From: an uncultured Planctomycetia bacterium
GTDB taxonomy: Bacteria; Omnitrophota; Gorgyraeia; Pluralincolimonadales; Pluralincolimonadaceae
Assembly: GCA_964650515.1 (NCBI GenBank)
Contig: CAZYUB010000007.1
Location: 20,837 to 84,836 of the forward strand
Reading direction: 5' to 3'
DNA length: 64,000 bases
Both the position numbers and the translations under genes were made by a program. Under the pieces are notes generated by a model that saw only the letters and a list, made by a program, of their open reading frames with translations, was not told the DNA's origin and did no database searches. How positions within the stretch are numbered: position 1 is the first letter of the stretch; the number at the start of each line of letters is the position of its first letter. Of this stretch, positions 657 to 59,116 are shown in pieces.

Positions 657-683
657 GAGGGTGTCCCCTTAGAGGATGGCTCC
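657..683 (+). repeat. REP-like element copy (GAGGGTGTCCCCttaGAGGATGGCTCC); supplies the ATG of the downstream radical SAM gene
   Basis: 24/27 identity to GAGGGTGTCCCCCCGGAGGATGGCTCC at 53296-53323 and to the inverted pair at 41579-41639. An in-frame TAG at 670-672 is followed by ATG 676 inside the repeat. Confidence 0.6.
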
Positions 684-2169
684 TAAAAACTTCGCGTTTT
701 GCAATGAATGCAGACAGATAGTCCCCGCGACGCATGTCGAGCGAGACAACAAGGTATATCTCTCCAAGGAATGCCCGAAATGCGGGAAGACGGAATATCT
801 CGTATCCTCGGACGCGTCGCTTTATAACAAGAAGCGCGCTTTTATGCAGGAAGCGGTGGTATCGTCGGGCTGCGGGCTCTTATGCCCGAACTGCGCCTCC
901 CACAAGAAGCCCGACATAATCTTCATAGACGTCACTAACCGCTGCAATATGAACTGCCTCATCTGCCTGAACAACCTCGCCACGATGGGCTACAAGTTCG
1001 AGCCCCGCATGGAATACTTCGACAAGATATTCAAGCATTATTCGACGTACGAGACGAAGCCATACGTGCAGCTCTTCGGCGGCGAGCCGACGATGCGCGC
1101 GGACCTCTTCGACATAATAAAGCTCGGTAAGTCATACGGCCTTTCCATGCGCGTCATAACGAACGGCCTGAAGCTTGCGGATAAGAAATACTGTGACGAC
1201 CTCATGGAACTCGGCGTGATGATACACATAGCGTTCGACGGGCTCAACAAGGCGATGTACGAGAAACTCCGCGGCCGCGCCGACGCGCTCGATTTGAAAC
1301 TCAAGGCGCTCGAGAACCTCGCGGCGCGCAAGAGGGGCAAGGTCATACTGATGACCGTCGTCGACAAGGAGCAGAACGCTTCGGACATGGCCGAATTTTT
1401 CAGGTTCAGCCAGCAGAACCTGCATGTCGTGCGCGGGATATACTTTATGCCCTTGATACATACCTGGGACAAGAAGGTCCTTGATTATAACCCCGAGCGA
1501 ACCACGCTCGAGGACGTCGAGTATATGGTCAACGCGACGATAGAGGGAGGCAACGTCGAGTTCGTCCCGCTCGGCTCGTTATCCCTGAAGAACCTCTACA
1601 GGGCGCTCGGAATAAGGAACATGCCTTTCGTCGGCGTCCACCCGAACTGCGAGAGCATAACATACCTCGTCTCCGACGGCGCGAAGTTCGTCTCGGCGTC
1701 GAAATTCCTGAAGACGACACTCTACCGCTTTATAGGTGACCTGCGCGGGCTCGAGATAAAGATATCGAAAAAATACGCGGCCGGGAAAAAACCCGGGTTC
1801 ATCGGCAAAGCCTGCATATGCATGGGAGTCCTAGGTATAGCGGCGAAACACGTCAACTTCGGCGCGCTTGTCGGGGCCAAGGGTATTGACGCATACGGGA
1901 AGTGGCTCGGGATATTCGGGAAGATAATTATTGGCAGGAAGGCGAAGGATGTTTTGCGCGATGATACGCTTATAAAAGGCGCCCTTCAAATACTTATCCT
2001 GCCGCTCGAGGACCTCAAGACCGCCGAGGCCGAACGGCTCGTGATGTGCTCGTCATGCTTCGCCTATGTCGATCCGGACACCGACGAGATAAAGACACTT
2101 CCTACCTGCACGTGGGACAACTACAAGAAACCCATAATGAAGAAAGTCGCGGAGAAGTTCAATGTTTGA
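676..2169 (+). CDS. Radical SAM enzyme with N-terminal CxxC...CxxC zinc-ribbon/rubredoxin-like domain (possible Tes/GDGT-MAS-like tetraether synthase family)
   Basis: CNECRQ..CPKCGK N-terminus; CNMNCLIC = Cx3Cx2C; GGEPT SAM-binding motif; C-terminal Cys cluster. Family assignment beyond radical SAM is inference. Confidence 0.8.
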   Translation: MAPKNFAFCNECRQIVPATHVERDNKVYLSKECPKCGKTEYLVSSDASLYNKKRAFMQEAVVSSGCGLLCPNCASHKKPDIIFIDVTNRCNMNCLICLNNLATMGYKFEPRMEYFDKIFKHYSTYETKPYVQLFGGEPTMRADLFDIIKLGKSYGLSMRVITNGLKLADKKYCDDLMELGVMIHIAFDGLNKAMYEKLRGRADALDLKLKALENLAARKRGKVILMTVVDKEQNASDMAEFFRFSQQNLHVVRGIYFMPLIHTWDKKVLDYNPERTTLEDVEYMVNATIEGGNVEFVPLGSLSLKNLYRALGIRNMPFVGVHPNCESITYLVSDGAKFVSASKFLKTTLYRFIGDLRGLEIKISKKYAAGKKPGFIGKACICMGVLGIAAKHVNFGALVGAKGIDAYGKWLGIFGKIIIGRKAKDVLRDDTLIKGALQILILPLEDLKTAEAERLVMCSSCFAYVDPDTDEIKTLPTCTWDNYKKPIMKKVAEKFNV

Positions 2170-3628
2170 TAGGCAGGTCAAGACGATATGCCCCGCATGC
2201 AACAGGGACCTCGATGGCCGCTACTACGAGGAAGGCGGCAAGATCCTGCTCGAGAAGAAATGCAGCGAGCATGGCAAGGTAGTCGACCTCGTATCGTCCG
2301 ACGCGGAGCTTTTCAAGGAACGCCTCAGCTTATTCGACCATATCAAGGACTACGGCTGCGATATCCCGAAGTGCCGCGAAGGCATCTTCAAGTGCGCTGT
2401 CCACCACATGCGCAAATCCCCGATAACCTTTATAGAGATAACGACGCGCTGCAACATGAAGTGCCCGGTCTGCTACGCGGACGCGGACGCGACCGGAAAA
2501 GACGTCCCCTTCGAGGATGTCTGCCGTATGCTCGAGGCGATAGCGAAGGAGGATAAGGAGACGCATCTCGTGCTGACCGGCGGCGAGCCGACGATACACC
2601 CGGACTTTTTCAGGATAGTCAAGAAGGCCGAGGAGCTCGGCCTGCTGCGCAGGACGTTCATTGCGACGAACTGCATAACGATCGCCGACAGGGATTTCTG
2701 CAAGAAGGTATTCGACGCGGGCATCAGGAAATTCTATTTCGGTTTCGACGGCACCGACCCCGAGGCGTGCCGCAAGCTTCGTGGGAGCCTGGCCGCGTAT
2801 GAATCGGTGCGCAAGGCGCTCAAGAACATCCGCGAGCTCGGCAAGGCGTGGATAATCCTCTCGTTCACCGCGTCGAAACAGCTGAACCTCGATAATATCC
2901 CGGAAGCGATAAAGTTCGCGATGGATAACCAGGATATCGTCAAGCGGCTCATGATAACGACAGAGTGCTTCTCCGGCAGGATAACCGACGTAAACGACCT
3001 CGTCAACAAGCGCCTGACCGGCGACTGCGTCGAGGACTTCATCTGTAAGAAGATAGGCGCGCGGACGGTCACATTCCCGCTCGCGGCGTTCTATATATTA
3101 TTGAAACCCCTGAAATTCGCGAAGCTGATAGATGCCGACAAATGGGTGACATCTACTTTCAGCCCGATGTGCGGCCAGATGGGGATGGTGATCTCACAGG
3201 ACGGCGAATTGAAGTCGATGATAGACCTCGTTGTCAGGGACCCGCGCAAAAATATCTACAAATGCGGCCGCGAGATAGACATGCTCGCCAACAAAATGGA
3301 AAAAGCGCCGTGGATCGTGAATCATTTGTTCTATCTTCCGCTGTATTTCATAAAGTTGCTCTCTTACGTCAACGGAAGTTTCCTCCGGAAGGCGCTCGCG
3401 GTATCCATAAAGAGCGGATTCAACTCGAAGAGGATAAAGAAGGCGCTGCTCGGAGAAAAAAGAGTGGAGCTATACTATCTTTTGGGTTCCGACAAATATA
3501 ATTTCATCTGGGACAGGATGCCGCACTGTGCGACCCACCATTACCGCATTCACCCGACGACAAAACAGGTCATAAAGGTCCCCGGTTGCCTCGTCTTCGC
3601 GTTCAGGGAAGAGCTGAAAAATTATTGA
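2162..3628 (+). CDS. Radical SAM enzyme, tandem paralog of the upstream gene (zinc ribbon + Cx3Cx2C)
   Basis: CPACNRD..CSEHGK ribbon; TTRCNMKCPVC; LTGGEPT. Start overlaps the stop of the previous gene by 8 nt. Confidence 0.8.
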   Translation: MFDRQVKTICPACNRDLDGRYYEEGGKILLEKKCSEHGKVVDLVSSDAELFKERLSLFDHIKDYGCDIPKCREGIFKCAVHHMRKSPITFIEITTRCNMKCPVCYADADATGKDVPFEDVCRMLEAIAKEDKETHLVLTGGEPTIHPDFFRIVKKAEELGLLRRTFIATNCITIADRDFCKKVFDAGIRKFYFGFDGTDPEACRKLRGSLAAYESVRKALKNIRELGKAWIILSFTASKQLNLDNIPEAIKFAMDNQDIVKRLMITTECFSGRITDVNDLVNKRLTGDCVEDFICKKIGARTVTFPLAAFYILLKPLKFAKLIDADKWVTSTFSPMCGQMGMVISQDGELKSMIDLVVRDPRKNIYKCGREIDMLANKMEKAPWIVNHLFYLPLYFIKLLSYVNGSFLRKALAVSIKSGFNSKRIKKALLGEKRVELYYLLGSDKYNFIWDRMPHCATHHYRIHPTTKQVIKVPGCLVFAFREELKNY

Positions 3629-9948: not shown

Positions 9949-10054
9949 CGTGTCCCCTGCGTATTGATTTACGAAGCAAATCAGCAGCGGGATAGCCAAA
10001 TAATGAGTATTGAATTCCGTGTTATTTATGGCATATTTATAGCAGAAAAAGGTA

Positions 10055-10084
10055 TTGACAAGAGATTGTGTGTGTGTTTAAATA
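10055..10084 (+). promoter_or_regulatory. Promoter-like TTGACA-17/18-TTAAAT/TAAATA upstream of a short leader
   Basis: Perfect -35 hexamer in the AT-rich island; the predicted transcript runs into the intrinsic terminator at 10120-10151. Confidence 0.4.
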
Positions 10085-10119
10085 AGCTATCATCCCAGTG
10101 AGATTAAAGTCTCATTGGC

Positions 10120-10151
10120 CCCGAACTCCTCGTGGGTTCGGGTTTTTCTTT
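10120..10151 (+). terminator. Intrinsic terminator (CCCGAAC-loop-GTTCGGG followed by TTTTTCTTT) in the leader just before the NYN gene ribosome-binding site
   Basis: 7-bp GC-rich stem and a 9-nt loop then a U-run; the ribosome-binding site AAGGAG starts 3 nt downstream. Possible attenuator or small RNA of about 60 nt (10090-10151). Confidence 0.55.
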
Positions 10152-10163
10152 ATAAGGAGCTAA

Positions 10164-10775
10164 ATGAAGCGAGTTGCTGTTTTTGTCGACGGTTTTAATC
10201 TCTACCATGCTTTGAACGAAAACGCCGCCTATCGAAAATACAAATGGTTAAATCTTGAAAAATTCTCAAAGTGTTTCGTCACCAAAAATGAAACAATAGT
10301 TGATATTTTATATTTTACATCTTATGTAACATGGGATGCCCAAAAGCTTGCAAGACACCAGATTTATGTGAAGGCGTTACAATTGGTTAACGTGAAGCCA
10401 GTATTCGGTGCTTTTAGAATGAAGGATGCAACTTGTCGCGTATGCCACGAAACATATAAGATACCGGAAGAAAAACAAACAGATGTTAATATTGCAATAA
10501 AACTATTCGAAACAGCAGTTAAGGATATATGGGATACGGCTTTAATCATATCAGGTGATAGCGACTTGATTCCTGCAATAGAGGCCATTAAAAAATTATT
10601 TCCCATCAAAAGAATAGGTGTTGCAATACCTATAGGAAGAAGCGCCGAAGAGTTAAAAAAAGTAGCAGATTTCCGGATAAAAATAAAACCAATACATCTT
10701 CAAACATGTCAATTTGACGACGTTATCATTATCGATAAGGATACTCAGTTAAAACGACCCGATACATGGATATGA
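10164..10775 (+). CDS. NYN-domain (LabA-like, PIN-fold) protein
   Basis: VAVFVDGFNLYHAL N-terminus and a GDSDLIPAI acidic cluster. About 35% GC, immediately downstream of tRNA-Asn. Confidence 0.75.
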   Translation: MKRVAVFVDGFNLYHALNENAAYRKYKWLNLEKFSKCFVTKNETIVDILYFTSYVTWDAQKLARHQIYVKALQLVNVKPVFGAFRMKDATCRVCHETYKIPEEKQTDVNIAIKLFETAVKDIWDTALIISGDSDLIPAIEAIKKLFPIKRIGVAIPIGRSAEELKKVADFRIKIKPIHLQTCQFDDVIIIDKDTQLKRPDTWI

Positions 10776-10799
10776 AATAAAACATTAGTTGCGTTCCGA

Positions 10800-10836
10800 C
10801 CCTTCGCAATAAATATTGCGGAGGGTTTTATTTTGG
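10800..10836 (+). terminator. Intrinsic terminator after the NYN gene
   Basis: CCCTTCGCA...TGCGGAGGG stem then TTTTATTTT. Confidence 0.6.
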
Positions 10837-10876
10837 AGTACAATTGGAAATTAAATAACCCACCAAGGAGGCCAGC

Positions 10877-11290
10877 ATGAAAATAGGAAAGCTACTCATT
10901 GCCGCAATAGCACTTTCAATCTTCGGTTTAATCATCGGCGCAGTCACCTGCGGAGGCGTGTTCAATTGGGTATACAAGCTCGAGCCGACAAACGTCTGGA
11001 AGCCGATGGACGGCCCGCCGGGTATGGTGTATCACGTAGTCGGATTCATACTCAACGTAATACTTGCGGCTGTTTACGCGTTATTCCGTAAAGGCCTTCC
11101 CTGCAAGAACAGGCTGGTCAAGGGCCTTATATTCGGGTTATGCGTCTGGGCCGTCGGCATGCTGCCGGGGATGTTCGCAACTTATTATTTCATGACGGTG
11201 GCTACCGAAGTCGTGATCTACTGGACCATCCTGGGCCTGGTTGAATACCCCATAATGGGGCTGATAATCGCCGCTATATACGGAGAATAG
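10877..11290 (+). CDS. Small polytopic membrane protein, hypothetical
   Basis: 4 predicted TM segments; strong ribosome-binding site AAGGAGG. Confidence 0.5.
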   Translation: MKIGKLLIAAIALSIFGLIIGAVTCGGVFNWVYKLEPTNVWKPMDGPPGMVYHVVGFILNVILAAVYALFRKGLPCKNRLVKGLIFGLCVWAVGMLPGMFATYYFMTVATEVVIYWTILGLVEYPIMGLIIAAIYGE

Positions 11291-11303
11291 GACGCGGGGG
11301 GTA

Positions 11304-11331
11304 TTGACATTCCCCCGCAATCTGCTAAAAT
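11304..11331 (+). promoter_or_regulatory. Consensus promoter TTGACA-16-TAAAAT with a GCGGGGG/CCCCCGC palindrome bracketing the -35
   Basis: Perfect hexamers; the inverted repeat 11293-11318 flanks the TTGACA (possible operator). Confidence 0.5.
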
Positions 11332-11358
11332 ATATACACAATTAGGGAGAAATAAAAA

Positions 11359-11390
11359 GCCAAAGACATAGCTCTTTGGTTTTTTATTTA
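11359..11390 (+). terminator. Intrinsic terminator-like hairpin (CCAAAGA-loop-TCTTTGG + TTTTTTATTT) between the promoter and the trkH start
   Basis: Could terminate the upstream membrane gene or form a short leader/attenuator. It overlaps the track's TTG start at 11376, so the true start is ATG 11397. Confidence 0.5.
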
Positions 11391-11396
11391 TGGCAA

Positions 11397-12728
11397 ATGA
11401 GAGACGTAATCTACTCGATACTCTACAGGTTCCGCAATTCCAACCCGATAAGGCTGGTGGCGCTGGGCTACCTTACCTATGTGATCGTGGGCTGGGCGCT
11501 CCTTTGCGCCCCGTTCTTCCAGAAGGTACCCGTTCCCGCGCTCGACAACCTGTTCATAGCCAGCTCAGCCGTATCGACCACGGGGCTGGCGACTATCACG
11601 GTCTCGGATTCCTATAACTTCCTCGGCCAGGTTGTCATATTGGTGCTCATCCAGCTCGGAGGCATAGGGTATATGACGTTCGGTTCCTTTGTCATCCTTT
11701 CGACGAAGAGGAATCTCGAGGAAAACCATAAGAACATAATGCGGACGGTATTCAGCATACCGAAGGATTTCAAGATAGAGAAGTTCATAAAGAGCGTCAT
11801 AGGGTTCACGCTCTTCTTCGAGCTGCTGGGGGCGGTGGCCCTTTTGCCGGTATTCCTGAAGGCGGGCACCGAAAACCCGTTATGGCAGGCGGTATTCCAC
11901 AGCATTTCCGCCTTCTGCACGGCGGGTTTCAGCCTCCTGCCGAACAGTTTCGAGAATTTCAAGGATAACGTATGGCTTAACGTCGTCATATCGGTATTGA
12001 GCATAGTAGGCGCGATGGGTTTCATCCTATGCGTAGACGCCTGGCGTGTCATCACCGGGAAGACGGGGAAGGTGACCTTCACGACAAAGATAATCGTCGT
12101 CGCCACGTTCTGGCTGCTTGTCATAGGCACGGTATTGTGCTTCCTTAACGAGCCCTTCGGTCCCGGGACGATGCCCGACCAAAAATGGCTTTATTCGTTC
12201 TTCCAGGTGATGACGTCCCTGACCACCGTGGGTTTCAACACCGTGCCGATAGGCGCGCTTTCCGAATCCGCGATACTCCTGCTCACGTTCATGATGATAA
12301 TAGGCGCGTCGCCTTCGGGAACAGGCGGCGGCCTCAAGACGACGACTTTTTCGGCCATTATAGGCCTCGTGCGCAGCACATGCCGCGGGGATACGGAGGT
12401 AAAATTCTGGGGCAAGACCATTCCCGAAGACAGGGTAAAGACATCCGTAGCTACGTTCGTATTTTATATGGGCGCGCTTGCCGCCGGAACTTACCTGCTT
12501 ACGCTGACTGAGAAATTCCAGTTCTCGCAGATACTCTTTGAAAGCGCATCGGCGCTGGGCACCGTGGGCCTCAGCCTGGGTATCACTTCGTCGCTGACGC
12601 ATATGGGCAAGCTTATAATAATCCTCATGATGTTCGTGGGCCGCGTGAGCCCGTTGAGCCTGGGGGTTGCGCTCTTCGTGAAGTCAGAGCTTATATTTGA
12701 TGACGAGAAGACCGATATTGCGGTATAA
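11397..12728 (+). CDS. trkH: Trk/Ktr-type potassium transporter membrane subunit (TrkH/KtrB family)
   Basis: Four pore-loop motifs (TTGLATI, GGIGYMT, CTAGFS, TTVGFNT, GGGLKTT). Start moved from the track's TTG 11376 to the in-frame ATG 11397. Confidence 0.88.
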   Translation: MRDVIYSILYRFRNSNPIRLVALGYLTYVIVGWALLCAPFFQKVPVPALDNLFIASSAVSTTGLATITVSDSYNFLGQVVILVLIQLGGIGYMTFGSFVILSTKRNLEENHKNIMRTVFSIPKDFKIEKFIKSVIGFTLFFELLGAVALLPVFLKAGTENPLWQAVFHSISAFCTAGFSLLPNSFENFKDNVWLNVVISVLSIVGAMGFILCVDAWRVITGKTGKVTFTTKIIVVATFWLLVIGTVLCFLNEPFGPGTMPDQKWLYSFFQVMTSLTTVGFNTVPIGALSESAILLLTFMMIIGASPSGTGGGLKTTTFSAIIGLVRSTCRGDTEVKFWGKTIPEDRVKTSVATFVFYMGALAAGTYLLTLTEKFQFSQILFESASALGTVGLSLGITSSLTHMGKLIIILMMFVGRVSPLSLGVALFVKSELIFDDEKTDIAV

Positions 12729-20119: not shown

Positions 20120-20177
20120 TTGACGGGGCATGCCTTAGGTGGTATACAATAGGTATGCATTGGTGTATACAGGTATA
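20120..20177 (+). promoter_or_regulatory. TTGACG-17-TATACA promoter followed by four 11-bp-phased GGTATA repeats (site A)
   Basis: GGTATA-like cores at 20141, 20152, 20162/5 and 20172. Same architecture as 23440 and 24332. Confidence 0.55.
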
Positions 20178-22620
20178 TAACAGGAACAGGCGCGGCGCAG
20201 CCCTGATCATGACGGTGGGGGTGCTCAGCATGCTCGTGCTCATAGGCGTCTCGTTCGCCGCTACTACGCAGGCCATATACAGGGAGGCAAGGAATTACTC
20301 CAATTCCGTGAAGGCGAGATACCTCGCCGAAGCGGGGATAGCGAGGGCGATAGCCGAACTCCGCTGCGGCGCGGAAGGCGCGGTATCGGACGCGGTAGAT
20401 ACGCAGGCGGAGGGCTGGTATGCCGGATATTCCGCCGTTCTCGGCGGCGGCAGGTACCAGGTGAGCGGCACGGATTGCGCGGCCAGGATATATATAAACG
20501 ATACCAACCCGAACCTCAGCGCCATGCTTGAAAACCTCACGGCGGCACTCATATCCATGGACGAGCCGCTTTCAGCCGGGGACGGCGCCGCGATAGTATC
20601 GAACCGGCCGGCCGAAGGTTATATGAGCGAGCAGGAGGTGGAAGAGCCGTTCAGGCCTTACGTTACCGTAAGGGCGTTCCGGGATACGGCCGTCTATTCG
20701 AACGCTTCGCCTTTTCCGGCAGTCCCGAGGGCGCCCGTAAACGTCAATACCGCTTCCAAGCCGGTACTTAAAGCCGTCCTGTCCGGAATAGAAGCGCTGC
20801 ATATGTGCCCGAGGTGCGGAGGCGACGGGACGATATTCGCCGCAAGCGCGTGCCCGGATTGCGGGGGGACCGGCGGCCTAAGGATCACCTCTGCGGAGGC
20901 GGATGGGCTCGCGGACTACATAATTGCGAACCGCCCGTATTCGACATGGGGCCAATTCTATAACTCGATAAAATCCTGCGCAAGTATAGGAGCGCAGGAC
21001 GCGGACCTCGTGATGGCGAACGCGAACCCGAACGCGGGATTCGCGCCCGGGGCGCGCAATTACGGCTGGGCAAGCGGCGCGGGGCGTATCGGCAAAGATA
21101 TCGACCCGGCGGACAGCGGACGCGGCCTTACAACTCACACGACGGAATTCTGTTTCAATTCGGGGGGATATTACGATATCGTCTCGACCGGGACGGTAGA
21201 GGCAGGCGCGGGGACGGTCGTGGCTTCAAGGAGCATAAGGTCTGTCGTGAAGATATTCGATATCTGGAGGCAGACAACGCAGTCGGAATTCCAGGCGGGC
21301 GCCATGAGCGGCCTGCAGAGCTATCCGGAGCCGATAGGCGCGGGCATAGCGCCGGCGGCGTTCGACGGGCAGCTGATGCTCGCGACGAACGAGGACCCGT
21401 CCACCGCCAATACGCTGCTGAGGGCAAGCTTCAACGACGGGCTCGACCTCGATTCGGCGGCGAACGCGAATATCGTCAGGGATCCGGCGAGCACCTGCTC
21501 CGTGGGGAGCGTGGCCGACGCGTCGGACCCGGGCAGCTTACTGCCGGACGGCGTCTTCGTCAACAAAAAGTCCAACGATTACATATCGTTCATGGAGAAC
21601 TGGAGCGGCACCTATAACATGGCGAAGGCGGACATGGGGACGCTTTCGCTCTGGGTCAAAGCCGTATCCGGCGGAGAGGTGTATTCGGGGATGAGCTTCT
21701 CCGGTTACGAGATAGACACGTACGGCAACGGGCATACTGACGGCGGCCCGCCGTGGGATTTTTCGCTCTTCGAGATACACCCGAGCGGCTTCATTCCCGG
21801 CTCTCCGTTCGGCGACTGGAACTGGTGGAGGCCGGGTTACGCGAACAGGACGGAGGTATGGTTCTACGAACAGTGGGACGCCGCCCTGCCCGAGAGGCCT
21901 ATCGGATTTATCGGGTTCCAGGAGGTCGGAAGCGGCATCGGCGGTGGCAACGTCTCGCAGATAATGAGCACAGGCCGCGCGAGGAAGAACTGGGCGCCGG
22001 GCACATGGCACCATGTCGTCTTCACGTATGAATTGAGCAATCCCGCCGACCCGAACTGCATGACGGGGACTAAGAAGATATACATAGACGGCGCCGAGCC
22101 CCCGCATTACGCCTATGACACGATATACCACCGGCTTAACGGCGATGTCCGCGACATTACCCTCGGCACGTCGGACATCAATAACAGCCATTCAGACGGC
22201 ACCTATATAATAGACGAGTTCAGGTCGGAGCACGCCTGCGCGACGGCCGCGCAGGTCATGGCGGAATTCGCGTCCGGCAGATATTACGATAACAGCGACG
22301 CGGAATTCACGTCGTCAGCGTTCGACGCTGGAGAAGCGCGCATCGGCACGGTATCGTGGACTGAACACATGCCCGCGAGTGTCGCCGGAGGCGATATACG
22401 ATTCGATATAGACAACGGCTCGGGATGGCTCGGCGGGTATGCCGCGCGCAACGACCCAGCGGGATCCCCCGTGGACGCGATGACCACCGGGACGAACCTT
22501 ATAAGGTATAAGGCGTATTTCGTGAATTCGGGTACGGGGCTTACCGATACGCCGGTCCTCGATGACGTGACCGTCACTTATTTGAGAAGGGCGGAAATAC
22601 TTTACTCAAGGGAGGAATGA
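20155..22620 (+). CDS. PilX/GspK-like N-terminus (RRGAALIMTVGVLSMLVLIGVSFA) fused to a large secreted domain with a Cys4 knot and a C-terminal LamG/ConA-like lectin domain
   Basis: Minor-pseudopilin-like N-terminus; CPRCGGDG..CPDCGG; WHHVVFTY..KKIYIDG LamG signature; C-terminal RYKAYF..TPVLDDVTVTY module shared with the giant ORF at 59871. Start uncertain (ATG 20155 lies inside the repeats; alternative ATG 20209). Confidence 0.6.
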   Translation: MHWCIQVYNRNRRGAALIMTVGVLSMLVLIGVSFAATTQAIYREARNYSNSVKARYLAEAGIARAIAELRCGAEGAVSDAVDTQAEGWYAGYSAVLGGGRYQVSGTDCAARIYINDTNPNLSAMLENLTAALISMDEPLSAGDGAAIVSNRPAEGYMSEQEVEEPFRPYVTVRAFRDTAVYSNASPFPAVPRAPVNVNTASKPVLKAVLSGIEALHMCPRCGGDGTIFAASACPDCGGTGGLRITSAEADGLADYIIANRPYSTWGQFYNSIKSCASIGAQDADLVMANANPNAGFAPGARNYGWASGAGRIGKDIDPADSGRGLTTHTTEFCFNSGGYYDIVSTGTVEAGAGTVVASRSIRSVVKIFDIWRQTTQSEFQAGAMSGLQSYPEPIGAGIAPAAFDGQLMLATNEDPSTANTLLRASFNDGLDLDSAANANIVRDPASTCSVGSVADASDPGSLLPDGVFVNKKSNDYISFMENWSGTYNMAKADMGTLSLWVKAVSGGEVYSGMSFSGYEIDTYGNGHTDGGPPWDFSLFEIHPSGFIPGSPFGDWNWWRPGYANRTEVWFYEQWDAALPERPIGFIGFQEVGSGIGGGNVSQIMSTGRARKNWAPGTWHHVVFTYELSNPADPNCMTGTKKIYIDGAEPPHYAYDTIYHRLNGDVRDITLGTSDINNSHSDGTYIIDEFRSEHACATAAQVMAEFASGRYYDNSDAEFTSSAFDAGEARIGTVSWTEHMPASVAGGDIRFDIDNGSGWLGGYAARNDPAGSPVDAMTTGTNLIRYKAYFVNSGTGLTDTPVLDDVTVTYLRRAEILYSREE

Positions 22621-22623
22621 CAG

Positions 22624-23469
22624 ATGAGATACTGGATGATATCGATTGCGCTGGCGCTCATGATCGTGAATACGGTATCGGCGGAGACGGGATCGGCCGT
22701 CGAGGGCTATAGCCCCGCGGTTCCGCTGCCTTCAAAAATGCCCGCGGAAGCCGGGATAAAGATATCGAAAGCCGCGATAGATTTTTCCGGCGGTGAATAC
22801 CGCGTAAAAGTCAGCGGCAGCACCGGCCTTCCCGACAAGGCGAGGATATACGTCTTCCTGAAGAAGGGGGAGTTTCCGCTGGACTGCAAGATCGCGCGCG
22901 CGGAAGGAGGCAGGTTCTCGGTAGAGCTCGGGCCGTTCCGGGTAAAACTGCCGATAGGCATATATAATGTGGAGGCGTCGCTGACGGCGGCGAGAGCATC
23001 CGGCGCGAAAGACATATACCGTCTCGTGGCCGGTAACCCCGAAGACGCGGTAAAAGAGGAAGAGTCCAGCAGGGCCGCGGTCTCGGCAAGCCTGGCTTCT
23101 GTCAGCGCGCTGTATGATGAGCTAGAGCAGAAGCGCGCGCAATACAAGGACAGTTTCGACCCGGCTGAATGGAGGAGATGGTCGGAAGGGTGGACTGCCC
23201 GCCTCAGGAACGAACAGCAGGCGGTCGATAACAACATAAAACCGCTGTTGGCCGGCGATTATTCGGGCCCCGGCCAGGCGCTTTCGCAGCTGATAAGGGA
23301 CCTTGACCAGCTCGGAAGGGTGTATTCGTCCGAACTGGACGGTGGCGGTATCAAGGATGCCTACCCTTATGCCTTCAGGGACCCCGCGCAGCTCAGGGCG
23401 GTCATCAACGAAGGCCTTAAAAATAGCAAAAAAGTCGTATTGACAAACTGTGGCCTAAATGGTATATGA
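22624..23469 (+). CDS. Secreted hypothetical protein
   Basis: Signal peptide; no recognisable motifs; 3 nt after the PilX-like gene. Confidence 0.5.
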   Translation: MRYWMISIALALMIVNTVSAETGSAVEGYSPAVPLPSKMPAEAGIKISKAAIDFSGGEYRVKVSGSTGLPDKARIYVFLKKGEFPLDCKIARAEGGRFSVELGPFRVKLPIGIYNVEASLTAARASGAKDIYRLVAGNPEDAVKEEESSRAAVSASLASVSALYDELEQKRAQYKDSFDPAEWRRWSEGWTARLRNEQQAVDNNIKPLLAGDYSGPGQALSQLIRDLDQLGRVYSSELDGGGIKDAYPYAFRDPAQLRAVINEGLKNSKKVVLTNCGLNGI

Positions 23470-23505
23470 ATGGTATACTAATGGTATTAATTGGTATAGT
23501 ATAAT
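23440..23505 (+). promoter_or_regulatory. TTGACA-17-TATATG promoter with four GGTATA repeats at 11/11/10-bp spacing plus TATAAT (site B)
   Basis: GGTATA at 23461, 23472, 23483 and 23493; TATAAT at 23500-23505. Confidence 0.55.
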
Positions 23506-23520
23506 CCCACACGAAAGGAG

Positions 23521-24276
23521 GTGAAAAGATTGAAATATCTGATCGCATTGTTGGCATGCATGTTCATATTCGCGGCTTCTCCCGAGGCCCACGCAGTCCT
23601 GAATTGGGCGGGAGAGGACACCGACGCGCCTTCAAACGCGTTGAACTGGAGCTACGGGTTCTCGCAGGGAGGCGACACGGTAGAGCTGGTCACGACGCTG
23701 GACGGCAACTGCGCGCCTTCGGTAACCACCGAAGCGCATTCGGGCGCCGAATCGGTCAAGTTCCACTGGACCCACACGAAGGACACGGTCAACTGGGGAA
23801 CAAGGACAGCCTTGCAGGTTGGAAGCGACGGCAACGGCGGAGACAGCCTAGGCACCTCGATGATGTTCCACGATATCTCAACGGCGAACAACCTGACCTT
23901 CTGGGTCAAGGGCGCGGTTGGCGGGGAACAGTTCAGGGTCGCCCTGAACAGCGGCTGGGAAGGATCGGCGTATCCGACCGACCAGACGAACCAGCTGCTC
24001 GTGAGCGGAGTAACAAGCTCATGGCAGCAGGTAGTGATGCCCCTGTCGGGATTCACGTATGATTTCCAGTATTCGGAGAATCCCGGCCCGATCGACCTGG
24101 CCCATTTGACGGGCGTCAGGTTTGTCATAGAGTCGGGCGAGCCGACCGGCGAAGGGACGGTGTATATCGATGACATCTCGTTCGATACGCAGACGGTCCC
24201 GGAACCCGCGAGCCTTCTTTTACTCGGCTCCGGCTTGAGCGGCATGTTGGTCTTTGTAAGGAAGCGTAAAGCATAA
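23521..24276 (+). CDS. PEP-CTERM-anchored secreted protein with a carbohydrate-binding-module-like beta-sandwich domain
   Basis: C-terminal VPEPASLLLLGSGLSGMLVFVRKRKA (PEP motif, TM segment and basic tail). FWVKGAVGGEQFRVAL motif shared with 5 other proteins in the window. Start may be TTG 23530. Confidence 0.75.
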   Translation: MKRLKYLIALLACMFIFAASPEAHAVLNWAGEDTDAPSNALNWSYGFSQGGDTVELVTTLDGNCAPSVTTEAHSGAESVKFHWTHTKDTVNWGTRTALQVGSDGNGGDSLGTSMMFHDISTANNLTFWVKGAVGGEQFRVALNSGWEGSAYPTDQTNQLLVSGVTSSWQQVVMPLSGFTYDFQYSENPGPIDLAHLTGVRFVIESGEPTGEGTVYIDDISFDTQTVPEPASLLLLGSGLSGMLVFVRKRKA

Positions 24277-24419: not shown

Positions 24420-25529
24420 ATGGACGGTAAGTTTGACAAGAAGAGGCCGATGCTCTTTTACCAGCAGTTCGCGGATATGATCAGGGACCAGATCAACAGG
24501 AACCGGTATAAACCGGGCGAATACATCCCTTCCGAAAGGCAACTGAGCAAGGATTTCAAGCTCAACAGGATGACAGTGAGGAAGGGCATCGCGATGCTGG
24601 TGGAGGAAGGCCTGCTGCAGCCGTTCAGGGGGCGCGGGACTTTCGTTACGGGTTATCCCCAGCCCGGGAAGAAGACCCGGTCCAGGGATATCGGCTACGT
24701 CTTCATAAAGGATTTCAATTTTCCGCTTTCGAAGAATCCTTATTACACGGAGATCCTTGAAGGGGCGGAAGCCGAAGCTTCAAAACTGGATTATAAGTTC
24801 TTTCTAATGTCAGTAGATTACGATGAGAGCAAGCTAAGGGAGCTCGCGTCGCGCATAATCAGCGATAAGATAGGCGGGGCGGTCTTCGTAGGAAGGCTCG
24901 ACGAGAAGGTCGAGGAGATAATAACCTCCCTCGCGAAACGCAAGATACCCGTCGTCGTCATAGACAGGTACGTGCCCTATAACGGCGTCAGCGCGGTGCT
25001 GACCGACAATGCGAAGGGCGCGTATGACGCCGTGCAATACCTGGCTTCGCTCGGCCACCGGGACATAGGGTTCATTACGGGGCCGAAGTCGAACCAGGCG
25101 GTGCAGGAGAGGATCGGCGGATTCGAGAAGGCCGCCGGGGAACTCAAGCTCAAGGTGAAGGCGGAGCACACGGCCGAGAGCGACCTGCATATACACGGCG
25201 GATACCTCGCGATGAAGAAGATACTCGGGGCGCGCAAGTTCCCCACGGCGGTCTTCGCGATAAACGACGAGGCGGCGATAGGCGCGATGCGCGCGATACA
25301 CGAGAAGGGGTTGAAAATCCCGAAGGACATATCGCTCGTAGGGTTCGACGACATCGAATGGGCTTCGCACACGATGCCCGGGCTTACTACCATCAAGATC
25401 TACAAAAAAGAGATCGGCGCCGCTGCCGTGAAGAAACTCACGGAGCAGATCGAGGATAAGGCCGCTCTACCGGTCAAGAACGTGATGCCGGTAAAGCTTG
25501 TCCTCAGGGAGAGCGCCTCTCATGCCTAA
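24420..25529 (+). CDS. AraR-like transcriptional regulator (GntR-type winged HTH + LacI/GalR-type sugar-binding domain)
   Basis: PSERQLSKDFKLNRMTVRKGIAMLVEEGLL HTH, then a periplasmic-binding-protein-like fold. Confidence 0.8.
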   Translation: MDGKFDKKRPMLFYQQFADMIRDQINRNRYKPGEYIPSERQLSKDFKLNRMTVRKGIAMLVEEGLLQPFRGRGTFVTGYPQPGKKTRSRDIGYVFIKDFNFPLSKNPYYTEILEGAEAEASKLDYKFFLMSVDYDESKLRELASRIISDKIGGAVFVGRLDEKVEEIITSLAKRKIPVVVIDRYVPYNGVSAVLTDNAKGAYDAVQYLASLGHRDIGFITGPKSNQAVQERIGGFEKAAGELKLKVKAEHTAESDLHIHGGYLAMKKILGARKFPTAVFAINDEAAIGAMRAIHEKGLKIPKDISLVGFDDIEWASHTMPGLTTIKIYKKEIGAAAVKKLTEQIEDKAALPVKNVMPVKLVLRESASHA

Positions 25530-25547
25530 CATCTTGAGGAGATATAA

Positions 25548-27905
25548 ATGGGTAGTAAGCTGGATAAGTACGGTTATTTCGATAACGATAAGAAAGAATT
25601 CGTCATCGCGAGGCCCGACACGCCTCTTCCGTGGATCAATTACCTCGGCTGCGAGCAGTATTGCGGCCTCATGTCGAACACCGCGGGCGGCTACAGCTTC
25701 TGGATAGACCCGCTCGAGAACAGGATACTGCGTTACAGGTATAATAATATCCCTTCCGACAGGGGCGGCAGGTACATCTACCTGAGGGACAACAAGTCCC
25801 GCGATTTCTGGTCCGCCTCGTGGCAGCCCGTCCTTAAAAGCCCCGATAAATACAAATACGAGTGCCGCCACGGCCTCGGGTATACCGTCATATCATCGGA
25901 ATATTCCGGCATAAAGACGAAGACATCATATTTCGTCCCTCTCGGGGAGAACCTCGAGATATGGATGATGGAGGTCGAGAACGCCTCGAAGAAAGACAGA
26001 GACCTTGACGTCATTTCTTTCGTGGAGTTCTGCCTGCCGAACGCGCTCGAGGACATGACGAACTTCCAGGCGAACCTTAACACCGGCGAGACCGACTACG
26101 AGGACGGCACCGTCTACAACATCAGCAAACACCGCGTTACTAAGGCGCATTTCTCGTTCTTTACCGTCGCCAACCGGAAGGTCAATAGCTTCGACAGCAA
26201 GCGCGACGACTTCCTCGGGCCTTACGCCGACCTCAGCGCGCCGCGCGCCGTCGTGGAGGGCAAGGGCAAGAACGGCATCAGCTGCGGCTGGTCGCCGGTC
26301 GGGTCGCACAATATAGGCATGAAACTGAAGAAGGGCGAGTCGAAGACGGTGATATTCATCCTCGGCATCGCGCATTCGAGGAAAGAGGTCGACGGCTACA
26401 GGAAAAAATATTCCAACAGGGCCAAGGTCCTCGACGCATTGAAAAACCTCAACGGGCACTGGGAGGAGAACCTCGACAAATTCAAGGTCGAGACTCCGGA
26501 CGGCGACCTTGACCTGATGGCTAACATCTGGAACCAGTACCAGTGCCGCTCGACGTTCAACTGGTCGCGCTCGGCCTCATACTATGAATCCGGCATCGGC
26601 CGCGGCATGGGTTTCCGCGACTCGAACCAGGACACGCTCGGTTTCGTGCATATGGTCCCGGAGAAGGTGAAGCAGAGGATAATCGACCTCGCCTCCACGC
26701 AGTTCGAGGAGGGCGACGCGCACCACCAGTATTCCCCGCTCACGAAGAAGGGAAGGGAGCGCGGATATTCCGACGACCACCTCTGGCTCATATATTCCGT
26801 CGCGGAATATATCAAGGAGACGGGCGATACGAATTTCCTCTTAGAGAAGATCCCTTACAACAACGAAAAGACAGGCACACTGCTCGAGCATCTCGAAAGG
26901 GCGATAGATTATTCGGTCAAGAACACCGGGCCGCACGGCCTGCCGCTCTCCGGGTTCGCCGATTGGAACGACTGCCTTAACCTGCGCGGGCCTAACAACA
27001 AGGGCGAGTCGGTCTTAGTCGCGCAGATGCTCGTGCTGGCCGCGAAGGAGATGGCCGGCCTGCTGAGGTTCGTGAAGGAGCCGAACAAGGCGGCGCGTTT
27101 CGACGAGATAGCGGAGCGCATGACGGAGAGGATAAACGAGGTCGCCTGGGACGGCGCGTGGTATGTCAGGGCTTATGACGACAACTCGAACGTGGTCGGC
27201 TCAAAAAAGAACAAGGAAGGCAGGATATTCCTTGAGTCGCAGGGATGGGCGGTCATGTCGGGCGTGGCGCCGAAAGACAGGGCGATAAAGACGCTCGATT
27301 CGGTCGAAGAGCACCTCGCCACCGAGCACGGCGTCATCCTCCAGCAGCCGGCTTACAACGATTACCACAAGAGCCTGGGCGATGTCTCGTCATACCCGCC
27401 GGGGCTCAAGGAGAACGCCGGCATATTCTGCCATCCGAACCCGTGGGTCATGATAGCTGAATGCATAGCCGGGCGCGGCGACAGGGCGCTTTGGTATTAC
27501 AAGGCGATACTGCCGCCGTCGAAGGACCCGGATGTCCGCAGGGTCGAGCCGTATATCTATTGCCAGATGGTCGCCGGAAGGGACCATCCCGATTTCGGCG
27601 AGGGCAAGAACTCGTGGCTTACCGGGACTTCGGCGTGGAATTTCGTCGCGGTCTCGAAGTATATAATCGGGATAAGGCCGGATTACGACGGGCTTGTCGT
27701 CGACCCCTGCATACCGGAAAAATGGGCGGGGTTCAGGGCGGCGAGGAAGTTCCGCAACGCCGTCTACGACATCTCGGTGGATAATCCCGGGCATGTCAGC
27801 AAGGGCGTATCTTCGGTAAAGGTGGACGGGAAGTTCATAGAGGGGAACAAACTGCCCGTATTCAACGACGGCAAGAAACATTCCGTCGAGATAACTATGG
27901 GCTAA
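25548..27905 (+). CDS. GH94 cellobiose/cellodextrin phosphorylase
   Basis: Length (785 aa) and GH94-like motifs throughout; no signal peptide, so cytoplasmic. Confidence 0.85.
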   Translation: MGSKLDKYGYFDNDKKEFVIARPDTPLPWINYLGCEQYCGLMSNTAGGYSFWIDPLENRILRYRYNNIPSDRGGRYIYLRDNKSRDFWSASWQPVLKSPDKYKYECRHGLGYTVISSEYSGIKTKTSYFVPLGENLEIWMMEVENASKKDRDLDVISFVEFCLPNALEDMTNFQANLNTGETDYEDGTVYNISKHRVTKAHFSFFTVANRKVNSFDSKRDDFLGPYADLSAPRAVVEGKGKNGISCGWSPVGSHNIGMKLKKGESKTVIFILGIAHSRKEVDGYRKKYSNRAKVLDALKNLNGHWEENLDKFKVETPDGDLDLMANIWNQYQCRSTFNWSRSASYYESGIGRGMGFRDSNQDTLGFVHMVPEKVKQRIIDLASTQFEEGDAHHQYSPLTKKGRERGYSDDHLWLIYSVAEYIKETGDTNFLLEKIPYNNEKTGTLLEHLERAIDYSVKNTGPHGLPLSGFADWNDCLNLRGPNNKGESVLVAQMLVLAAKEMAGLLRFVKEPNKAARFDEIAERMTERINEVAWDGAWYVRAYDDNSNVVGSKKNKEGRIFLESQGWAVMSGVAPKDRAIKTLDSVEEHLATEHGVILQQPAYNDYHKSLGDVSSYPPGLKENAGIFCHPNPWVMIAECIAGRGDRALWYYKAILPPSKDPDVRRVEPYIYCQMVAGRDHPDFGEGKNSWLTGTSAWNFVAVSKYIIGIRPDYDGLVVDPCIPEKWAGFRAARKFRNAVYDISVDNPGHVSKGVSSVKVDGKFIEGNKLPVFNDGKKHSVEITMG

Positions 27906-27908
27906 CGC

Positions 27909-29033
27909 ATGAAGGAGACACAGATGAAGAAAGCGATGATCCTGGCAATGATGCTGGCGGTGCCGCAGTTGTGCATGGCCGCCGAATACGGGACCGTGTT
28001 CAAGGAGAATATGGGCAAGTACACATACGCATACCCGTCCACGAGCACGATCGAGATAGCCGAGCAGGGCGCGAAGGCCGGAAGGTCCTGCCTCCTGTTT
28101 GTCCTCGACCATAAGGAATACTCGGGCGGCGCGTTCGCGTTCAGCGATCCGATTGACGTTTCCCCGATAAAGGATACCGGCTCGCTCGAGTTCTGGATAA
28201 AGGGCGGCAACGGCGGGGAGAGGCTTGAGGTCGCGCTCGTGAACGAGCAGGCCGACGGTAAAAAAGCCGAAAGCTTTTTAAGCTTAAATTCCGTAAGCAG
28301 CGTCGACAACCGGTGGAAGAAGGTAGAGATACCGCTGAAGCTCTTCCCAAAGAACGGCATCTACTGGGACGCGGATAAGGGCAAGGAGCTCCCGCTCGCG
28401 TTCGACTGGAAGAACGTGACGGAATTCAAGGTCCGGACGAGGCCTACGCAGGGCCAGGATGACATAAAACTCTATTTCGACGATATCGTCTTCACGAAAG
28501 ACGCGGCTCCGGGCGTCAACGCGCTTGTCGTGTTCGACGGGGCGTTCCCGTCCTATACGTACGCGTATCCGGAGAGCGGAAGCAGGATAACCGTATCGGC
28601 CGGTGACGTGTTCGAGGGCAAGCCCTCGGCGAAGATATCGCTTAACGCGAAGGACTATTCGGGCGCCGCGTTCGCTTTCGGGCCCGTTGACCTCAGCGGA
28701 ATGCGCGAAGCGGGAGTCCTCGAGTTCATGATGAAGAGCGGCGCGGGCGGCGAGAAGGTGGAGATATGCCTCGTGCAGGCGGCAGAGCCGAAAGTAGAGA
28801 CCGGCGTGAGCCTGAGCGGCATAAAACCCCTGACTGCCGAATGGCAGAAATACGAGATACCGCTTAGCATGTTCCAGGACAGGGGCAAGTACTGGGACGA
28901 GGTCTCCAAGAAAGAGGTCGGCGCTGACGTGAAGAACTGGGACAAGATCGGCGAGCTCAAGTTCAAGATAAGGAAGGACGAGAACAAAGAATGCTCCCTA
29001 TACATAACGGACGTAAAGTTCAGATTGCAGTAA
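27909..29033 (+). CDS. Secreted protein with two tandem carbohydrate-binding-module-like beta-sandwich domains
   Basis: Signal peptide; internal duplication (EFWIKGGNGGERLEVALV and EFMMKSGAGGEKVEICLV). Confidence 0.6.
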   Translation: MKETQMKKAMILAMMLAVPQLCMAAEYGTVFKENMGKYTYAYPSTSTIEIAEQGAKAGRSCLLFVLDHKEYSGGAFAFSDPIDVSPIKDTGSLEFWIKGGNGGERLEVALVNEQADGKKAESFLSLNSVSSVDNRWKKVEIPLKLFPKNGIYWDADKGKELPLAFDWKNVTEFKVRTRPTQGQDDIKLYFDDIVFTKDAAPGVNALVVFDGAFPSYTYAYPESGSRITVSAGDVFEGKPSAKISLNAKDYSGAAFAFGPVDLSGMREAGVLEFMMKSGAGGEKVEICLVQAAEPKVETGVSLSGIKPLTAEWQKYEIPLSMFQDRGKYWDEVSKKEVGADVKNWDKIGELKFKIRKDENKECSLYITDVKFRLQ

Positions 29034-31288: not shown

Positions 31289-31881
31289 AAAAGGTTTTTT
31301 TGGCAGCCCTGATGATGCTGCAGGCAGCGGCCCTGTGCGCGGCGGTAGTTTACGGGATCTTCTCCGAGGAGATAGAGAAGGAAGGTACCTACCACTATTC
31401 CTACCCGACGGACGGTACGAGCGAGATAAGGACCACGAACATAGAGAAACATTCGGGGAATTATTCGATGAAGGTCACGCTTAACCCTTCCGGGTTTTCG
31501 GGCGCGGCTATAGGCAATTACCCGCCGATGGACCTGTCGAAATGCCGTGAGACTGGCGCGCTGGAATTCTGGATAAAAGGTGAGAACGGCGGCGAGAAGT
31601 GCGAGATACTCCTTCTCGACGACTCGAATAACGACGGCAACAAGACGGAAGTCGGGGTGGCAATAACGCCGAAATATGTGGCGATAACAAAGGACTGGCA
31701 GAAGGTCAGCGTCCCGCTGAAGGCGTTCCCGAACGACGGGCAGTACTGGGACGGCGAGAAGAACGTCAAGAATGCCGTCAATTGGAGCGAGATCGTGGAG
31801 TTCAAGGTCGCGAGCCGCCCCTATGACAAGAACGCCGGGTTCACGGTCTATATAGACGACGTGAACATAGTGATGCCATGA
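31285..31881 (+). CDS. Secreted single carbohydrate-binding-module-like domain protein
   Basis: Signal peptide; EFWIKGENGGEKCEILLL motif. Confidence 0.6.
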   Translation: MKKVFLAALMMLQAAALCAAVVYGIFSEEIEKEGTYHYSYPTDGTSEIRTTNIEKHSGNYSMKVTLNPSGFSGAAIGNYPPMDLSKCRETGALEFWIKGENGGEKCEILLLDDSNNDGNKTEVGVAITPKYVAITKDWQKVSVPLKAFPNDGQYWDGEKNVKNAVNWSEIVEFKVASRPYDKNAGFTVYIDDVNIVMP

Positions 31882-34760: not shown

Positions 34761-34789
34761 CGGAACTTTCCAGGTCGAAAACTGTCTAA

Positions 34790-36115: not shown

Positions 36116-36135
36116 TCTAGAAAACGGAGGTCTGC

Positions 36136-40176: not shown

Positions 40177-40177
40177 A

Positions 40178-40957: not shown

Positions 40958-40975
40958 ACCAAAAGGAGAAATAAG

Positions 40976-45002: not shown

Positions 45003-45005
45003 TTT

Positions 45006-56873: not shown

Positions 56874-56874
56874 G

Positions 56875-59115: not shown

Positions 59116-59116
59116 T

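Follow-up and report, generated by a model that had tools for sequence, protein, structure and literature searches.

The locus

The DNA analysed here (the window) is a 64,000-nt stretch of contig CAZYUB010000007.1 (positions 20,837 to 84,836; assembly GCA_964650515.1) from an uncultured Planctomycetia bacterium that GTDB places in the Omnitrophota. Preceded by 675 nt of the window, two genes on the forward strand, designated A and B, encode radical S-adenosylmethionine (SAM) proteins that resemble the archaeal lipid enzyme Tes, also known as GDGT-MAS (glycerol dialkyl glycerol tetraether-macrocyclic archaeol synthase). A first-pass annotation made from the letters alone had described two adjacent open reading frames (ORFs) of about 490 codons overlapping by 8 nt, and this is what is found: the products comprise 497 and 488 aa, and the genes share 8 nt (ATGTTTGA, 2162-2169; Table 1). 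The GGAG sequence at the junction is located 7 nt ahead of the ATG of B, and a promoter and terminator scan predicted no terminator between the two genes, an arrangement that fits translational coupling. The sole informative element returned by the scan was a promoter-like site just past B, before dnaX.

Both proteins exceed the gathering thresholds of two Pfam families, namely Radical_SAM (PF04055, threshold 29.5 bits; A 67.3 bits, E 2e-18; B 73.8 bits, E 2e-20) and the N-terminal ribbon family Zn_ribbon_HMPTM (PF23545, threshold 27 bits; A 44.9 bits, E 8e-12; B 50.8 bits, E 1e-13). The two are related to each other (BLASTP E 2e-32), and BLASTP leaves the C-terminal third of B unaligned to A. 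In public records, homologs of both are named only “radical SAM protein.”

Table 1. Coordinates of the gene pair and its sequence features in the window.
Feature	Position	Strand	Basis or conservation
Gene A, Tes-superfamily radical SAM protein, A-type clade, 497 aa	676-2169	+	ORF, Pfam, NCBIfam, PDB, model
A, candidate rubredoxin-like/zinc-ribbon site C9-x2-C12-x20-C33-x2-C36 (Cys4)	700-783	+	95-100% of 113 family members
A, N-terminal auxiliary [4Fe-4S] motif C66-x3-C70-x2-C73-x2-H76	871-903	+	Cys 100%, His 91%
A, radical SAM cluster motif C90-x3-C94-x2-C97	943-966	+	Family conservation and alignment
A, C-terminal auxiliary-cluster domain with C325 (1648-1650), C458 (2047-2049), C478 (2107-2109)	1648-2109	+	
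A/B junction, candidate translational coupling	2151-2169	+	GGAG 2151-2154; B start ATG 2162-2164; A stop TGA 2167-2169
Gene B, Tes-superfamily radical SAM protein, compact B-type clade, 488 aa	2162-3628	+	ORF, Pfam, NCBIfam, PDB, model
B, candidate rubredoxin-like site C10-x2-C13-x20-C34-x2-H37 (Cys3His, the GDGT-MAS arrangement)	2189-2272	+	
B, candidate N-terminal auxiliary cluster motif, re-spaced C66-x4-C71-x6-C78-x2-H81	2357-2404	+	Four residues 100%
B, radical SAM cluster motif C97-x3-C101-x2-C104	2450-2473	+	Family conservation and alignment
B, C-terminal region, with L440 at the Met439 position and H460 at the Tyr459 position	3170-3589	+	Conservation and alignment

Fold and family relationships

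Among the NCBIfam models, the best match of both proteins is Tes (NF045702), which aligns almost end to end (A 200.7 bits, E 3.5e-59; B 185.2 bits, E 1.8e-54) at scores under the 450-bit curated cutoff of this whole-protein equivalog. The second-best model, the TrsS radical SAM (seleno)protein (NF045646), shares the ribbon, the N-terminal cluster and the core over ~280 N-terminal residues (model positions ~2-291 of 441; A 163.7 and B 148.9 bits vs a 490-bit cutoff) and has no match to the C-terminal domain; it was rejected as a rival characterised family because it is itself uncharacterised and matches only N-terminally. The NCBIfam models of the SPASM family align to the core of A and B only (residues ~75-280), and there is no SPASM Pfam match. 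Similarly, the best sequence match in the PDB is GDGT-MAS (7tol, MJ0619; A E 3.9e-47; B E 9.3e-41).

AlphaFold2 prediction on family alignments gave models of high confidence scores (A pLDDT 93.1, pTM 0.92; B pLDDT 92.8, pTM 0.91). In Foldseek searches, these models superpose on 7tol over ~510 columns and all four domains (A TM-score 0.79, E 3e-32; B TM-score 0.75, E 2.5e-34), and every other PDB match covers the radical SAM core only (TM-score ~0.35). The four-domain fold of Tes, which comprises the rubredoxin-like domain, the N-terminal cluster domain, the radical SAM core in the form of a partial TIM-barrel and the C-terminal cluster/helical domain, is present in both models; thus B is predicted to have the complete fold although BLASTP cannot align its C-terminal third to A. 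With Tes as the top model, no best match in an unrelated characterised family and full-length superposition that includes the ribbon domain, the Tes/GDGT-MAS-like character proposed by the first-pass annotation is upheld for both proteins at the level of superfamily, architecture and fold.

At the level of orthology the picture is different. BLASTP comparison of A and B with eight Tes sequences of archaea, which include three from Methanosarcinales but not MA_1486 itself, gave 130-172 bits and 26-33% identity. With local hidden Markov models (HMMs) of the three families, A scores 831 bits with the A model, 165 with the B model and 210 with a Tes model built from 117 archaeal sequences, and B scores 168, 853 and 210 bits, respectively; Tes proper scores 480-850 bits with the Tes model, and many other homologs, some of them bacterial, reach 250-650 bits and are nearer to Tes than A or B is. 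The first-pass annotation had regarded the two genes as a duplicated pair. A recent tandem duplication is rejected because A and B match each other (~165 bits) less well than either matches Tes (~210 bits); by HMM score each is nearer to Tes than to the other.

When 1.84 billion representative proteins were searched by phmmer with A as query, 12,569 matched at E<1e-3, among which the A clade comprises only ~16 full-length representatives above 290 bits, followed by a plateau of 120-160 bits that includes archaeal Tes. The B family forms a compact set of ~40 clusters at 90% identity, after which scores drop from 362 to 164 bits, and the nearest matches outside this clade are archaeal Tes. A bootstrapped neighbour-joining tree recovered the A-type clade in 100/100 and the B clade in 88/100 replicates, and grouped A and B as sisters in 82/100; both branches are long, and long-branch attraction is possible for this last grouping. 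Given scores of 201 and 185 bits vs a cutoff of 450, the replacement of two marker residues of archaeal Tes (Met439 and Tyr459, described below) and the placement in two separate deep clades, A and B are not Tes orthologs.

Metal sites and catalytic residues

Four metal sites have been described in GDGT-MAS (MJ0619; PDB 7TOL/7TOM): a rubredoxin-like iron (C9x2C12x20C33x2H36), an N-terminal [4Fe-4S] cluster (C73, C77, C80 and a His), the radical SAM cluster, and a C-terminal [4Fe-4S] cluster with a labile Met439, which carries the substrate-sulfur intermediate (PMC9433317). Full-length MJ0619 was aligned with the A and B families, and ligand conservation was counted in 113 A-type and 34 B-type members. 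The ligand sets of all four sites are 90-100% conserved, save the fourth ribbon ligand of B, and for this reason both proteins look like active Tes-type enzymes, judged on sequence and minus the residues that mark archaeal Tes.

The two proteins differ at the ribbon. The pair of N-terminal CxxC motifs that the first-pass annotation had assigned to both is present in A, in which C9/C12/C33/C36 align with C9/C12/C33/H36 of GDGT-MAS and Cys replaces His family-wide; in B, by contrast, the fourth ligand is His, and across the B family the Cys residues are conserved in 100% and the fourth position is His in 71% and Asp in 26%. At the N-terminal cluster, C66/C70/C73/H76 of A align with C73/C77/C80/H83 of GDGT-MAS in the same motif, which is re-spaced in B. 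The Cx3Cx2C/GGEPT core and the Cys-containing C-terminus noted earlier are confirmed in both sequences: GGEPT occupies residues 135-139 of A (1078-1092) and 140-144 of B (2579-2593), and the three C-terminal cluster ligands (C338/C455/C470 of MJ0619) correspond to C325/C458/C478 of A and C337/C456/C476 of B, 100% conserved in both families.

Around the active site, the SAM-binding Arg210 is kept in both A and B and Arg275 is retained in B only, whereas Gln268 and Ser271, which contact 5′-deoxyadenosine, are kept in neither. Among the aligned sequences, the Met439 position is Leu in 21/21 A-type (L442 of A, 1999-2001) and 13/14 B-type proteins, and the Tyr459 position is Phe in 21/21 A-type (F462 of A, 2059-2061) and His in 13/14 B-type proteins. 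Both residues are invariant in ~1,000 archaeal homologs, and the M439A and Y459F/L variants of GDGT-MAS are still active (PMC9433317). In addition, C203 (2768-2770), C289 (3026-3028), H135 and H146 of B are invariant or near-invariant in the B family and lack a counterpart in A or archaeal Tes; going by the sequence pattern, an additional metal or redox site, or a part in determining specificity, is a possible role for them.

Conservation of the two-gene module

The order A-then-B recurs in metagenome-assembled genomes (MAGs) labelled Omnitrophota, Auribacterota, Planctomycetota and Verrucomicrobia. It was found in three Omnitrophota loci (L001, L002 and L004; 68-95% identity), in Auribacterota (L005) and Planctomycetia (L006), and further in L019, L020, L022, L026, L106, L107 (labelled Verrucomicrobia) and L108, and an identical 8-nt overlap is present in six of these other loci (L001, L002, L004, L019, L020 and L108). 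NCBI protein accessions of A and B are consecutive. An exact-sequence search of contigs with A gave no match, and the loci compared here are those of homologs, the closest of which mark the window as Omnitrophota DNA. Wherever the gene upstream of B is visible it is A-type, the exception being L021, in which it is a more diverged Tes-like gene. The A-type genes are arranged more variously, as an A-A tandem (L008), as triples (L010 and L023) or as singletons (L011-L018, L024 and L025). B proteins are 41-95% identical across phylum-level labels, and A-then-B is an old conserved module, not a recent duplication. A limited literature search found no description of a paired Tes-like module, which is not proof of novelty.

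Genomic context

In other lineages, the genes next to the module point to lipid A and the outer membrane. A 303-308-aa LpxL-family acyltransferase (PF03279), matched best in NCBIfam by lipid A lauroyl acyltransferases, is encoded 38-194 nt after B and in the same direction in L005, L106 and L107, and in the latter two lpxD-skp-bamA lies just past its gene. Directly ahead of A, and on the same strand, a 533-538-aa PMT/PMT_2 protein with ArnT as its best NCBIfam match is encoded in L006/L020, L007, L026 and L108. Furthermore, L011, L013 and L015 have lpxB in divergent orientation to a single A-type gene, and L021 has MlaEFD so placed relative to the pair. In a tblastn census, a lipid A or outer-membrane neighbour was found in 12 of 32 A/B-clade loci (446 kb) vs 0 of 77 other Tes-superfamily loci (896 kb). 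The comparison set goes back to a metagenome scan with the B-family alignment, which caught generic radical SAM patterns (GGEP, CNMxCPVC) and yielded 4 B-family loci among 80; the remaining 76 were reused as a rough control.

Three other associations were observed in these loci. In L006/L020, L022 and L108, a ~500-aa Thy1/ThyX-domain protein is encoded 3′ of B (11503-13008 in L108, with a 4-nt overlap with B). This is twice the usual length of ThyX, and no functional link to the radical SAM pair is apparent. A gene for a cysteine desulfurase-like class-V aminotransferase stands beside A-type genes in two unrelated loci (L023, 5037-13014; L008, 37-1104), and its product may be a source of sulfur or Fe-S clusters for enzymes that are rich in clusters and could lose their auxiliary cluster in catalysis. 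In L011, L013 and L017 (e.g., L013, 9995-16093), which are of Desulfomonile-/Syntrophaceae-type, a single A-type gene heads a conserved operon that continues with genes for a family 2 glycosyltransferase (GT2), a ParB_N-like protein, a spore-photoproduct-lyase-like radical SAM protein and an unknown protein of 413-448 aa; the operon adjoins lpxB in L011 and L013, and in L013 genes for a GT2 and a GT9 heptosyltransferase lie downstream.

In the window itself, the pair is followed by dnaX-recR, por genes and tRNA-Asn. Neither Pfam annotation of ~40 ORFs nor tblastn over the 64 kb, with ArnT-like, LpxL-like, LpxB, LpxD, MlaE/D and BamA as queries, detected a gene of the lpx, arnT, mla, plsA, elb or GGGPS type. 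Among the ORFs so covered there was likewise no archaeal-lipid gene and none of the ether-lipid genes to which the first-pass annotation had pointed as a check.

Other features of the window

Just upstream of A lies an 82-aa ORF (276-524, +) that matches neither Pfam nor NCBIfam models. Ahead of the pair, synteny with close relatives is lacking; a DltB-like MBOAT gene is found there in L002, and not in L001. The remainder of the window is taken up by transporters, a cellulose cluster, a glycan-export cluster and secretion genes. The cellulose/cellodextrin cluster (24420-41554, on the same strand as the pair) encodes a GntR/LacI-type regulator, a GH94 cellobiose/cellodextrin phosphorylase (E 3e-159), CBM30/CBM11 proteins, a GH9 cellulase, a large GH39-like/CIA30 protein, an ECF sigma factor and a GH3 protein with PA14, which suggests a saccharolytic lifestyle of this Omnitrophota bacterium. 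It is followed by a glycan synthesis and export cluster on the reverse strand (41639-49933) with three GT4 genes, a 699-aa GT2 and an ABC-2 exporter pair, in which a 449-aa unclassified radical SAM protein (45006-46358) has only weak viperin/HxsC-like core matches. Besides this gene, the only other radical SAM gene of the window encodes HemW, and neither is Mss- or Gms-like by the models used.

Envelope and secretion genes lie at 20155-24276 and 53710-57927 (a T2SS-K-like/Laminin_G protein, a PEP-CTERM protein with a CBM, an AAA_22 ATPase, a secretin at 55242-56873 and a TPR protein), the second stretch being followed by a two-component system (57928-59797). An IS200/Y1-type transposase (52689-53273, +) is located in a stretch of lower G+C (~0.50), and the G+C content dips further at 1-2000 (0.48) and at 10001-12000 (0.445; an NYN-domain gene and unknown ORFs); these low-G+C stretches may be acquired DNA.

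Proposed function and alternatives

To our knowledge, Tes is the only enzyme shown to form C(sp3)-C(sp3) bonds between inert lipid tails via an intermediate bound to an Fe-S cluster. The explanation that we favour, with a probability of only about 0.4, is that A and B, Tes-like radical SAM enzymes that are translated together, act on bacterial envelope lipids and alter their hydrocarbon tails through radical C-C coupling of the Tes type, the outer membrane and lipid A being the most likely target. It builds on the motifs, the fold, the family-wide conservation of ligands, the conserved pairing and the genomic context.

Cluster binding, cleavage of SAM, the substrate, the C-C coupling and the way in which A and B share the work are predicted features, and may be pictured as follows. 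The two proteins would be made from one bicistronic, translationally coupled unit and would act as a two-enzyme module, either in sequential steps or as a hetero-complex. By analogy with GDGT-MAS, the Cx3Cx2C cluster would cleave SAM to give a 5′-deoxyadenosyl radical, which would take a hydrogen atom from a lipid tail at an unactivated sp3 carbon. The resulting substrate radical would then be parked on a sulfide belonging to the C-terminal [4Fe-4S] cluster, at which Met does not fill the fourth coordination position in either A or B, until a second SAM-derived radical on a second tail attacks it to form the C-C bond; the N-terminal cluster and the rubredoxin-like site may supply or relay electrons. 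The likeliest substrates would be acyl chains, whether of phospholipids or of lipids of the outer-membrane or lipid A type, and archaeal-type diethers would not be among them. GDGT-MAS binds ester-linked phospholipids of Escherichia coli (PMC9433317).

Several observations weigh against this explanation. The scores are far short of the Tes cutoff, and Met439, Tyr459, Gln268 and Ser271 are not kept. No lipid gene adjoins the pair in the window, in which dnaX-recR come next, and the lipid A neighbour signal, the sole guilt-by-association signal, is absent from the window's own lineage. The enrichment in the census was noticed post hoc with queries taken from the A/B loci themselves, and the control set is taxonomically mismatched, many of its loci being archaeal or from gut and lacking lipopolysaccharide. 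The LpxL-like and ArnT-like neighbours are under their equivalog cutoffs, PF03279 also covers phospholipid and phosphatidylinositol mannoside acyltransferases, and several A-type genes lie in unrelated contexts (L018, L024 and L025). Finally, bacterial Tes homologs are to date without experimental assay (PMC8941075, PMC11868695).

The strongest of the alternatives, a serious one although less probable than the favoured explanation, places the reaction in the cytoplasmic membrane, where the pair would join the tails of two glycerolipids, ester- or ether-linked, into spanning lipids of the branched GDGT (brGDGT) or (iso-)diabolic-acid type, two successive C-C couplings being shared out between A and B. 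Homology, fold and cofactor sites match Tes, bacterial homologs of which have been proposed for brGDGTs, and a strain picked for its Tes homolog makes them (PMC8941075; bioRxiv 2022.04.07.487437). The second Tes paralog of an archaeon, MA_1114, differs in its products, with only trace macrocyclic archaeol (PMC8941075), and Omnitrophota MAGs carry ether-lipid (ElbD) and Mss homologs (PMC11868695). However, A and B (26-33% identity, 130-172 bits) are much farther from Tes than the Solibacter-type homolog (40%, E 1e-139), and no ether-lipid, gms or grs gene is adjacent in the 32 A/B-clade loci, whereas bacterial tes/mss genes reportedly cluster with gms. The informative contexts instead involve lipid A and outer-membrane genes, and the Omnitrophota are listed in the literature among the phyla that primarily encode Mss. 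As to the link to brGDGTs that the first-pass annotation had raised, nothing ties the pair specifically to these lipids, and the context in related lineages is that of lipid A and the outer membrane.

Next in rank, and plausible at a slightly lower probability, is that the Tes fold serves a different radical chemistry (desaturation, cyclisation, hydroxylation or insertion of sulfur, for example), whose substrate would be a lipid or another molecule (a polyprenyl-linked glycan intermediate, a cofactor, a peptide or another hydrophobic substrate). The superfamily, TrsS included, is large and mostly uncharacterised, as the 12,569 representatives indicate; the Met439, Tyr459 and SAM-site residues differ from those of archaeal Tes; and B has its own near-invariant C203, C289, H135 and H146. 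Changes of chemistry are known among distantly related radical SAM enzymes of lipids, in that one homolog of Gmm is a desaturase (bioRxiv 2025.10.20.683597), and at many loci the only neighbours are housekeeping genes. Against this stand the three-Cys C-terminal cluster, the site of the S-C intermediate in GDGT-MAS, which is strictly conserved in both families, and the C-terminal helical domain, which is kept in its entirety in the models. The recurrent neighbours are lipid-acting enzymes, and no precursor peptide and no cofactor or glycan-pathway signature accompanies the pair.

It is far less probable that only one of the proteins is an enzyme and the other a degenerate, non-catalytic partner or a redundant duplicate. 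The two are tandem paralogs with a C-terminal third that BLASTP cannot align, and A-A tandems or three A-type copies exist elsewhere (L008, L010 and L023), but Cx3Cx2C, GGEPT, Arg210 and the three auxiliary metal sites are at or near 100% in both families, both clades are old and evidently constrained, and an A-type or other Tes-like gene stands directly ahead of B wherever this is visible. An identity as 7,8-dihydro-6-hydroxymethylpterin dimethyltransferases (HMPTM), a name that JGI gives to several homologs and that the ribbon domain bears, is very unlikely, because it stems from an earlier assignment of MJ0619, since shown to be the tetraether/macrocyclic archaeol synthase (PMC9433317), so that for this founding member it is effectively refuted; in addition, the scan of window ORFs brought up no gene of the methanopterin pathway.

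Comparison with known systems

Tes (MJ0619; MA_1486; NF045702) is like A and B in its four-domain fold, metal-site ligands, Arg210 and length (~490-505 aa). Apart from the low identity, the differences are the replacement of Met439 by Leu and of Tyr459 by Phe (A) or His (B), the loss of Gln268 and Ser271, the Cys4 ribbon of A and the re-spaced N-terminal cluster motif of B. A and B are moreover bacterial, form an obligate-looking pair and, in other lineages, occur in a lipid A/outer-membrane context instead of among archaeal lipid genes. The bacterial Tes homologs reported earlier (Ca. Solibacter usitatus Ellin6076, Ca. Koribacter) belong to the same superfamily and have been proposed to couple lipid tails, but they are 40-42% identical to Tes (E 1e-139 to 1e-149), whereas A and B score 130-172 bits and fall into separate, paired clades.

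This distance bears on published surveys, in which a bacterial Tes homolog was defined by BLASTP E<1e-50 vs MA_1486 (PMC8941075, PMC11868695). From the database sizes, we estimate that this threshold requires ~210 bits. Since A and B reach 130-172 bits, their clades were probably missed in such screens. Supplementary tables of two surveys make no mention of Omnitrophota.

Among the other enzymes that link lipid chains, Mss of Thermotoga and Thermoanaerobacter, represented by Tmari_0825 and WP_129545148.1, is a radical SAM protein that couples two fatty-acyl tails anaerobically, by a postulated cluster-dependent mechanism like that of Tes. According to the literature, BLAST with Tes finds no homolog in Mss-encoding genomes, which by this description puts Mss in a different sequence family. 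The Gms/Hbs GMGT synthase is likewise a radical SAM enzyme with auxiliary clusters, and Gms makes C-C links between lipid chains; it is described as AhbD-like, of the SPASM/twitch type with a COG4001 extension, whereas A and B lack a SPASM domain match. Gms, Ted and the GDGT methylases were rejected as models for B, since these enzymes fall into radical SAM classes of the SPASM/twitch or B12-binding type.

Biological implications

Within the favoured explanation, that of a pair modifying the tails of envelope lipids, a more specific version is that the A-B module couples lipid A acyl chains by C-C bonds, either within one molecule (cf. macrocyclic archaeol) or by joining lipid A to a lipid of the inner leaflet. 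We give this version a low probability, slightly below that of either of the two leading alternatives; a limited literature search found no description of radical SAM modification of lipid A. If true, it would mean an outer membrane with covalently cross-linked or membrane-spanning lipids, and in some lineages the module would act alongside the neighbouring LpxL-like acyltransferase or ArnT-like transferase.

The function of bacterial Tes relatives bears on the brGDGT palaeoclimate proxies and on the “lipid divide.” Because two deep bacterial clades were likely missed by the E<1e-50 screens, gene-based inventories of potential producers of membrane-spanning lipids may be incomplete. That the two genes are kept together suggests that they divide the work, which the single-gene Tes of archaea does not do, and the repeated adjacency to lipid A genes leads to a testable hypothesis, namely that widespread uncultured anaerobes may possess a new outer-membrane lipid chemistry.

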